Positions 52,160 to 52,597 of a DNA stretch of 64,000 nt are shown here, piece after piece. Below the pieces are notes generated by a model, which saw only the letters and a program-made list of their open reading frames with translations, was not told where the DNA came from and ran no database searches. The first letter of the stretch is position 1. Every line of letters begins with the position of its first letter. The stretch is from Escherichia phage WPEC5. Where the stretch lies: the sequence record PV654397.1. One strand, 5' to 3'. The position numbers were made by a program, and so were the translations under genes.

Positions 52160-52597
52160 TTATTTAATCATCTCGGTATAGTAATCAGGTAAGTCAACGT
52201 CAGTAAATTTATACCAAGTAGGCTTCATCTGGAGCTTCTCAATCAAACGCTCACGAGACATTTTAATCTCTGACTCCGATGGTACGTAGTCATTACAAAA
52301 CTCAGCAGGGAAGCCGCTAATGTCGTTTACTTCAGTGTTTTGAATCTTCATACCACGACGCAAACATTCGTTAACAATATCAATATGACGCTTCTGTAAG
52401 TACAGTAACTTGTTGTAGAAGAATGTTACATGACCTGAACCTAACAGGTAAGTACTGTTAATTTTGAAATCACGGACTCGCTTACGTGCTTGAACATGTT
52501 TTTGTACAGCACCAAACACACGTGGGAGTTCACGATATTCAGCCATCAGATGTTGGTCAGCAAGTTCTTTAACGTGTACTAAGTTAATGCGTGTCAT
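52160..52597 (-). CDS. denV: endonuclease V / pyrimidine-dimer DNA glycosylase
   Basis: MTRINL ... [21 protein letters not shown] ... GHVTFFY ... PTWYK matches phage T4 endonuclease V from memory; 145 aa vs ~138 aa. Confidence 0.8.

Follow-up and report, generated by a model that had tools for sequence, protein, structure and literature searches.

The window, by which we mean the whole 64,000-nucleotide stretch of Escherichia phage WPEC5 analysed here (sequence record PV654397.1), carries on its minus strand a homologue of the T4 endonuclease V gene, denV. The explanation that very probably accounts for the data as a whole is that of a functional DenV-type enzyme, probably encoded in a small early unit of its own and likely derived from an old lateral transfer, in a neighbourhood whose local plasticity arises via homing-endonuclease-type genes. 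The gene is as follows.

52160 to 52597, minus strand: denV, 145 aa, ATG start; pyrimidine-dimer DNA glycosylase/AP lyase, T4 endonuclease V homologue

When positions 50–56 kb of the window were searched by megablast, 76 phage records were matched, the best of them Escherichia jumbo phages of 350–385 kb. The top relatives were Turkey3 (~97% identity) and then CMSTMSU, vB_Ec-M-J, fEgEco12, phAPEC6, 121Q and others. The window comes from a Rak2-like jumbo coliphage (121Q/PBECO4 group) and not from a T4-type genome, and therefore arguments from the T4 gene map, on which the preliminary description had drawn, do not carry over to it. Hypotheses on the repeat, membrane and RCC1 loci must accordingly rest on evidence of their own. 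The DenV homologue itself is ordinary. It was already known, since CBB_519 is listed as ‘UV repair endonuclease V’ among the T4 homologues of Pectobacterium phage CBB (PMC5259590) and the gene is annotated as endonuclease V or pyrimidine dimer glycosylase in 121Q, phAPEC6, fEgEco12 and other relatives. [quoted passage not shown] The fEgEco12 protein is unlike that of the window in being 171 aa long with an acidic tail, in having an intact HNH gene upstream and in having no repeat locus downstream. What is modestly new concerns the lineage-specific terminator/promoter cassettes, the decay of endonuclease genes and the likely lateral origin of denV.

The preliminary description had recognised a close T4-type DenV from the letters of the sequence, and this identification is secure because the Pfam, PHROG and T4 crystal-structure sequence matches agree. 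An ORF occupies exactly 52160–52597 on the minus strand and matches PF03013 (Pyr_excise) with 55.9 bits (5.5e-15; cutoff 23 bits), phrog_1183 (‘endonuclease V N-glycosylase UV repair enzyme’) at 5.6e-59 and, by phmmer, the T4 endonuclease V structures 2END, 1VAS and 2FCC at E 4e-54 to 5e-53. All of the motifs that had been quoted are present (MTRINL at residues 1–6, a further motif at 11–31, GHVTFFY at 55–61 and PTWYK at 126–130), and the best matches outside the jumbo-phage lineage are indeed Tequatrovirus DenVs, at 64–66%. Moreover, residues 1–131 align with T4 endonuclease V without a gap at 64% identity, and from such identity to solved structures the all-alpha EndoV fold would be expected.

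In T4 endonuclease V the initiator methionine is removed and Thr2 acts as nucleophile through its alpha-amino group, Glu23 is catalytic, and a basic surface formed by Arg3, Arg22, Arg26, Arg117 and Lys121 binds the kinked DNA. Both the Met-Thr start and E23, the catalytic requirement of the EndoV family, are present in the window DenV, and all five of these basic residues are kept. We aligned 46 members of the DenV clade, spanning ~60% to 100% identity. The MTRINL N-terminus is identical and T2, R3, Q15, H16, E20, Y21, R22, E23, R26, H56 and R117 are invariant in 46/46, whilst position 121, K in the window, is K in 45/46. Systematic differences of the clade from T4 are found only after W128-Y129-K130, which is common to both: F/Y/W at 131, T/S at 132 (Y131F and Y132T in the window) and then a lineage-specific tail with the consensus V-E-x-P-x-Y-Y-x-E-M, succeeded in some members by long acidic extensions. 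Lengths in the clade range from 141 to 242 aa (138 aa in T4 against 145 aa in the window), with the variation confined to the region past residue ~133.

On these residues we regard it as highly probable that ORF 52160–52597 encodes an enzymatically functional DenV, and a working CPD glycosylase/AP lyase is what they predict. By analogy with the T4 enzyme, the initiator Met would be removed and the alpha-amino group of Thr2 would then attack C1′ of the 5′ pyrimidine in a cis-syn cyclobutane dimer. A Schiff-base intermediate would form, with Glu23, after which the glycosyl bond would be cut and the strand nicked by beta-elimination, and base-excision repair of UV-damaged phage DNA would begin.

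The genes on either side of denV are given below.

52602 to 52739, minus strand: remnant of an HNH homing-endonuclease gene, a 45-aa ORF keeping CSNHHRMVH; phrog_2255 (HNH endonuclease) at E 1.2e-5
51929 to 52144, minus strand: ORF of 71 aa without assigned function; no Pfam or PHROG match; absent in fEgEco12
50073 to 51860, minus strand: decayed homing-endonuclease-like gene, copy M2, with ~8 degenerate 64-aa repeats over two frames
51168 to 51860 and 50477 to 51208, minus strand: ORFs of M2 that hold the repeats
50073 to 50405, minus strand: ORF of M2 that holds the detached C-terminal domain
48275 to 49774, minus strand: M1, a second and more decayed copy of the repeat/endonuclease-like gene (phrog_681/559 matches on fragments; repeat-motif map)
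48838 to 49245, plus strand: inverted piece of M1

The M2 locus matches phrog_681 (‘endonuclease’) and phrog_559 (‘HNH endonuclease’) at E 1e-25 to 1e-33, and MUG113/T5orf172 weakly (E 0.004). Turkey3 has an intact version of 432 aa in which five ~64-aa repeats, each opening with KKTTEQFIKDAKEKR, precede the C-terminal domain. This domain is 53–54% identical to the C-terminus of a 324-aa DUF4379 protein of CBB, whose gene lies two genes from CBB denV and whose repeats Pfam recognises as Cys-containing zinc fingers of the DUF4379 treble-clef type (4e-9). The repeat protein of Turkey3 bears the same ‘DUF4379’ label in GenBank and gave no Pfam match at E<=0.01, only the Cys-containing CBB homologue scoring. 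We read the window repeats, from their sequence, as zinc-less, degenerate versions of the CBB type. In the window the gene has been expanded, frameshifted into three ORFs and duplicated as the more decayed copy with its inverted piece. At least 14 occurrences of KKTTEQFIKDAKEKR are spread over three frames and both strands, and by this repeat-motif map it marks the start of a repeat unit rather than an N-terminal leader; such faint likeness as it has to the T4 sequence MKTYQEFIAE is coincidental. Peptidase_C58 Pfam matches on the repeat proteins were rejected as spurious and repeat-driven, having no individually significant stretch.

The HNH gene upstream of denV is intact in fEgEco12 (g570, 137 aa), and the window is without 318 bp of it between two AAGTGTAT microhomologies. 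Gp570 is reported to be absent from Ecwhy_1 in the fEgEco12 paper (PMC13070987). PHROGs, record annotation and the visible motif are the basis of the HNH assignment; the intact fEgEco12 protein gave no Pfam match at E<=0.01. [quoted passage not shown] However, both window genes are inactivated, and their nuclease domains are assigned from PHROG labels and the weak MUG113 match.

With an HNH remnant and a frameshifted repeat gene as its immediate neighbours, both pseudogenised, denV could itself be taken for a passenger that is decaying or non-functional, carried in an accessory region rich in junk, the more so as its own 3′ end is a recombination junction with variable tails. We find this hardly credible. 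The denV ORF is intact and retains a strong predicted promoter and ribosome-binding site of its own, the clade-wide invariance of MTRINL and of T2, R3, R22, E23, R26 and R117, with K121 lost in a single member, extends over proteins as little as ~60% identical, and the tail variation is all past residue ~133. A functional enzyme remains our reading, and its gene is likely to form a small early transcription unit of its own, to judge by the following elements.

52626 to 52658, minus strand: class-1 cassette upstream of denV (hairpin, T-run and sigma70-like promoter)
52639 to 52658, minus strand: 8-bp GC-rich hairpin of this cassette, GGGTTGAC-TTCA-GTCGGCCC
52650 to 52655, minus strand: -35 hexamer TTGACT of the denV cassette promoter, inside the hairpin; 18-nt spacer; extended -10 TGcTATAAT (-10 at 52626 to 52631)
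52605 to 52611, minus strand: GAGAGGA, Shine-Dalgarno-like, 7 nt before the ATG of denV, read from sequence
51903 to 51935, minus strand: class-1 cassette closing the denV module and predicted to drive the next gene (pattern search and promoter scan)
50030 to 50062, minus strand: class-1 cassette (pattern search and promoter scan)
48235 to 48267, minus strand: class-1 cassette whose upstream edge, 48280/48281, is a rearrangement breakpoint common to Turkey3 and fEgEco12

Between 48 and 64 kb the minus strand has seven copies of the sequence GGGTTGACTTCRGTCRGCCCTTTTTGCTATAAT or a close variant of it, six of them found with a 33-nt pattern (0 expected by chance) and the seventh being a variant at 63559–63588. 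Each cassette consists of a GC-rich hairpin (stem of 8 bp, loop TTCG or TTCA), a T-run and a near-consensus sigma70 promoter whose -35, TTGACT, lies within the 5′ arm of the hairpin and is succeeded by the 18-nt spacer and the extended -10. The copy serving denV is 29 nt upstream of the start codon, with GAGAGGA then following as the predicted ribosome-binding site; its promoter has 11/12 sigma70 matches plus the TG, counted as matches to consensus, and its RNA folds at -20.8 kcal/mol (z -5.2). By its consensus elements, such a cassette should stop transcripts arriving from upstream and begin transcription afresh at a host sigma70 promoter close to consensus. With the next copy a module of two genes ends, denV and the 71-aa ORF, and the two would be co-transcribed between the two cassettes. 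An identical 23-nt hairpin is found directly upstream of denV in CBB, and again past the next small ORF, though the DenVs are only 66% identical. Moreover, CBB_519 has been placed in a putative early region rich in RpoD-like promoters (PMC5259590). T4 denV has a potential -10 region in record X04567, and it too is presumably an early gene with its own promoter. The window gene is nevertheless unlike the T4 gene in belonging to a 350-kb Rak2-like jumbo phage, in having no neighbours in common with it and in lying under a jumbo-phage-specific cassette, of which neither the complete T4 genome nor the other T4-like loci compared had a copy.

We then considered where the jumbo-phage DenV came from. 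Among 1309 DenV homologues, proteins from contigs of 237–386 kb were 66–96% identical to the window protein with full-length coverage, and the 138-aa T-even forms came next at 58–66%; DenV is present throughout the jumbo clade. A neighbour-joining tree of 48 sequences with 200 bootstraps gave the following splits.

Clade of all jumbo-contig DenVs: 200/200
Jumbo clade and all Tevenvirinae, separated from RB43, KVP40-type, Aeromonas, Ackermannviridae and others: 175/200
Jumbo clade inside Tevenvirinae, as sister of the T4-core group: 65/200
Monophyly of Tevenvirinae without the jumbo clade: 30/200

Identity to T4 DenV is 64% for the window protein and 57% for that of CBB, as against 38% for the nrdC.10 homologue of the window and 31–38% for the core proteins that CBB has in common with T4 (gp23, 35%; PMC5259590). 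The DenVs of RB43, KVP40-type phages and Aeromonas 31.2 are only 33–41% identical to either T4 or the jumbo group. Even within Tevenvirinae the T4 and Morganella Rgz1 proteins are 55% identical, and between T4 and other Straboviridae genera identity is again 33–41%; on these comparisons DenV is not intrinsically slow-evolving. Because the jumbo and T4 DenVs are 57–64% identical where shared core proteins reach 31–38%, in a protein that is not slow-evolving, the best reading, and in our judgement a likely one, is that the gene passed laterally, long ago, between a T-even-like phage and an ancestor of the jumbo phages. The jumbo clade, with its own C-terminal signature, groups with the enterobacterial T-even DenVs, and its similarity to them is about double that seen for the shared core proteins. 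The reading is neutral as to direction and timing, since the tree divides between nested and sister placement, 65/200 against 30/200.

That same division leaves some room for vertical inheritance, in which T4-like and Rak2-like phages had DenV from their common ancestor and the protein evolved slowly. Rak2-like phages do possess about 41 distant T4 homologues, repair and recombination genes included (PMC5259590), and the gene occurs throughout the jumbo clade. We nevertheless consider vertical descent improbable, given the fall in identity to 55% within Tevenvirinae and to 33–41% beyond, the excess of DenV over core-protein similarity, and a genomic position of denV that differs between the lineages.

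The preliminary description had called denV the only recognisable core-type gene in the 64 kb, and this fails on three counts. The name ‘denV’ occurs 0 times in the survey of Petrov 2010 (PMC2993671), whose Core and Quasicore lists for T4-related phages do not include the gene. Other genes are recognisable: a Pfam scan of the 138 window ORFs returned 13 RCC1-like proteins, a GNAT acetyltransferase, a DksA/TraR zinc finger, a ParE-like toxin domain, DUF7249 twice and an AAA/STAND-like NTPase, and tblastn of the ORFs against the whole T4 genome found two further T4 homologues besides DenV, nrdC.10 and, weakly, motB.2. Those located are listed here.

8374 to 8730: GNAT acetyltransferase (Pfam scan)
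8794 to 9051: DksA/TraR zinc finger (Pfam scan)
47436 to 48206, minus strand: AAA/STAND-like NTPase, homologue of T4 nrdC.10 (38% over 239 aa, E 3e-50, tblastn against T4)
63089 to 63529: weak match to T4 motB.2 (E 2e-5, tblastn against the T4 genome)

ORF 47436–48206 matches phrog_1250 at 7e-103, its AAA-family Pfam matches being weak. This nrdC.10 homologue is 4 kb from denV in the window; in the T4 genome nrdC.10 is about 10 kb away from denV. A T4 spackle homologue was also considered at 15284–15583 and is not supported, there being no PDB match at E<=1 and the ORF falling in a PHROG of unknown function; an ORF annotated ‘protein spackle’ in fEgEco12 has the same 300 nt length and relative order, by a comparison of length and order only.

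The T4 map had been given correctly, the order being e - ipIII - ipII - denV in both X04567 and NC_000866, and the repeat-protein locus, the membrane-protein paralogues and the RCC1-like array that had been described are all present near denV. The step from there to lineage-specific replacement of T4 neighbours is not supported. We compared 30 proteins from around denV of Tequatrovirus fFiEco06, together with IPII and IPIII of T4, with the window by tblastn: only DenV matched (7e-57), the rest being no better than E 0.02, and the T4 denV neighbours, IPII and IPIII included, had no counterpart. Of the two signs to which the preliminary description had itself looked, T4-type best hits were found and conserved synteny was absent. 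Other T4-like phages place denV as follows.

fFiEco06: e directly adjacent, no ip genes
RB43: near dda/dexA
Aeromonas 31.2: beside primase
phi-pp2 (KVP40 type): near nadR

There is thus no fixed denV neighbourhood even among T4-like phages, and therefore the position of denV is uninformative about the identity of its neighbours. The first call was the correct gene with an over-reaching context argument.

This bears directly on the idea that denV marks a T4-type internal-protein neighbourhood, in which the repeat, membrane and RCC1-like genes replace ipII/ipIII and their products are packaged via an N-terminal leader. Besides the proximity of denV to ipII/ipIII in T4, it can point to a conserved N-terminus: all 14 plus-strand genes of the array at 27.8–44.9 kb, encoding 13 RCC1-like proteins and a 245-aa protein without a Pfam match, open with MLPF[AV]RM[FV][DK]YGN. 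Moreover, the capsids of phAPEC6 and 121Q have an inner body, to which the phAPEC6 authors speculated that RCC1-like proteins might contribute (PMC7247149), and the RCC1-like gp1 of GAP32 has been detected in virions by mass spectrometry. We nevertheless hold this idea to be very improbable. Only DenV of the 32 T4-region proteins matches the window, the neighbours of denV differ among T4-like genera, with e and no ip genes in fFiEco06, and the repeat locus is a decayed endonuclease-like gene whose motif is internal to the repeat. The paralogue families at 44.9–47.4 kb and 55.1–56.2 kb are small, very hydrophobic multi-pass membrane proteins. The RCC1 array begins 7 kb away on the opposite strand, and a second, different kind of hairpin-plus-promoter cassette precedes most of its genes; no TATAAATA late-promoter motifs were found upstream of the RCC1-like genes. 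The T4 capsid-targeting sequence is of the type MKTYQEFIAE, has a Glu cleavage site at its end (gp21-processed) and is carried by small soluble basic proteins; the array leader MLPFxRMxxYGN has no similarity to it and no conserved Glu. The sequence features of T4 internal proteins were not found in the window, IPII and IPIII having no match, KKTTEQFIKDAKEKR being an internal repeat start and the array leader being unrelated.

Packaging of the RCC1-like array proteins is not absurd, and it rests on the inner-body and virion reports, independently of denV; an equally possible role for the leader could be as an anchor to an external virion structure. The position of denV had been offered as a fit with the leader acting as a packaging signal. 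It adds no weight to that hypothesis, because there is no T4 synteny, the neighbours are not substitutes for internal proteins and the leader does not resemble the sequence that targets T4 proteins to the capsid.

That the region is plastic, as had also been proposed, is borne out by the close relatives fEgEco12 and Turkey3, which differ from the window by indels and replacements around denV. The genome of fEgEco12 is without window positions 48280–52194, M1 included, and there the nrdC.10 homologue follows directly after a denV with a different C-terminus (the 171-aa form). In Turkey3, two unrelated genes stand in place of M1. The broad order of denV, nrdC.10-like gene, membrane paralogues and RCC1-like genes is retained in a metagenomic relative of 92 kb, whilst CBB, within 20 kb, has only DenV and the endonuclease-like C-terminal domain in common with the window. 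Around denV, the plasticity is due to homing-endonuclease-type genes that are gained, lost or decay, and recombination at repeated cassettes may also contribute. Collinearity with the window is broken at 48280/48281 in both Turkey3 and fEgEco12, exactly at a cassette edge; the other junctions, at 49771, at 52194 (the last codons of denV) and at the HNH deletion, lie away from cassettes, so that 1/4 of the mapped breakpoints falls at a cassette.

In T4-type phages, PeSL (promoter-early stem-loop) cassettes mediate indels in hyperplastic regions (Arbiol 2010, PMC2839356; Comeau 2014, PMC4122927). The window cassettes likewise combine, in a short conserved unit, a stem-loop/terminator with a predicted early promoter of the sigma70 type and recur among small accessory genes where the genome is plastic, and one copy coincides with the breakpoint common to two relatives. 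They are unlike PeSLs in being of another sequence and in another phage lineage, in having the -35 hexamer embedded in the 5′ arm of the hairpin, and in that only one of the four breakpoints lies at a cassette. Shuffling mediated by the cassettes is thus a possibility to which we give rather less than even weight. More doubtful still is the wider proposal that Rak2-like phages order their early accessory region with PeSL-like cassettes of their own, the same to the nucleotide in coliphages and CBB, which together with homing-endonuclease genes would drive the gain and loss of modules, denV being one such module, acquired long ago from a T-even-like phage and brought under the control of the jumbo phage.

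In summary, DenV would provide the phage with a light-independent first step in the repair of UV damage. Its similarity to T-even DenVs, far above that of the shared core genes, offers a clean, small and likely example of accessory-gene exchange between unrelated large coliphages. Moreover, the cassettes may be used as a handle to map early transcription units in these phages and to test cassette-mediated shuffling outside the T4 family.

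Past residue ~133, the C-terminus of the DenV homologue is a hot spot of recombination, both in the window (52160-52200, minus strand) and among the homologues compared with it (P0001-P0045). Across these proteins the variable tails bring total length to anywhere from 141 to 242 aa. Some tails are acidic extensions ending in ...DEIEEQIKDEMNNY, and in Salmonella phage SD-2_S15 DenV is found in a 242-aa fusion. Decayed endonuclease-type genes and a composite terminator/promoter element (class-1 cassette) were mapped as follows:

48275-51860, mainly minus strand: decayed repeat/endonuclease-like gene, two tandem copies
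52602-52739, minus strand: HNH homing-endonuclease remnant
48235-48267, 50030-50062, 51903-51935, 52626-52658, 56922-56954, 59965-59997 and 63559-63588, all minus strand: class-1 cassette copies in the window
Locus L011 of Pectobacterium phage CBB, positions 8326, 9941, 10696 and 18645: class-1 cassette copies in CBB

The tandem gene encodes repeat units of ~64 aa followed by an endonuclease-like C-terminal domain; it is broken into several ORFs by frameshift in the window and is intact, at 432 aa, in the related phage Turkey3. The repeats are zinc-less derivatives of DUF4379 treble-clef fingers, because the Cys ligands of the CBB homologue have been lost in the window. The HNH remnant was left when 318 bp were deleted between AAGTGTAT microhomologies. 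Where the HNH gene is intact, in phage fEgEco12, the cassette hairpin supplies the stop codon (GGGTTGA). The cassette itself comprises a GC-rich hairpin, a T-run and a near-consensus sigma70 promoter, with the -35 box within the stem of the hairpin. Coliphages and CBB carry it with identical nucleotides, and it is absent from the T4 genome. The element resembles the promoter-early stem-loop (PeSL) cassettes of the T4 family, but comes from outside that family.

Homology to T4 genes other than denV was also detected in the window. The ORF at 47436-48206 (minus strand) is a homologue of the functionally uncharacterised T4 gene nrdC.10 (38% over 239 aa, E 3e-50) and has weak Pfam matches to AAA/STAND NTPases. 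In fEgEco12 this homologue directly adjoins denV. In T4 the two genes share a strand and keep the same order, with ~10 kb between them. Similarity to T4 motB.2 is weak (41% over 54 aa, E 2e-5) for the ORF at 63089-63529 (minus strand), which has no Pfam match. Other genes were placed by PHROG membership or by size:

57646-59157, minus strand: 'virion structural protein' (phrog_20398, E 2e-244)
60005-60388, minus strand: 'virion structural protein' (phrog_16530, E 8e-55)
53023-53394, minus strand: phrog_4301 member, 123 aa
3755-4396, minus strand: phrog_4301 member, 213 aa
21965-27478, minus strand: ~20 tandem small ORFs of 55-77 aa

Both 'virion structural protein' genes sit in an early-type, cassette-punctuated stretch 5-8 kb upstream of denV, and the 503-aa product of the first has an N-terminus rich in Gly, Gln and Arg. 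The phrog_4301 pair may represent a protein-kinase-like family with one copy truncated: a motif like the catalytic loop of kinases (DAKPENFG) is present in the 123-aa protein, which aligns to no more than positions 40-167 of the 225 in the profile, and Pkinase is matched weakly by the 213-aa protein (E 0.005). The small ORFs are a membrane/peptide paralogue family; phrog_11711 is matched by 8 window ORFs, one of which was placed individually (22183-22374).

Repetition of a different kind is seen in the plus-strand array:

27759-44893, plus strand: 14 genes, encoding 13 RCC1-like proteins and one 245-aa protein
~27830, 31442, 32655, 33918, 34728, 35937, 40648 and 43016, plus strand: second cassette type, ahead of most array genes

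All 14 proteins open with the conserved N-terminus MLPF[AV]RM[FV][DK]YGN, including the 245-aa protein (33982-34719, plus strand), which has no Pfam match. This N-terminus, unrelated to the T4 capsid-targeting sequence, is a putative targeting or anchoring module common to at least two different C-terminal domains. In the second cassette the hairpin is GCCAGTA-CTTGA-TACTGGC, and it is accompanied by a T-run and by the sequences TTGTATTAAATATAGTATAAT and AAAGGAGG. Repeats of this cassette could promote unequal crossing-over and expansion of the array.
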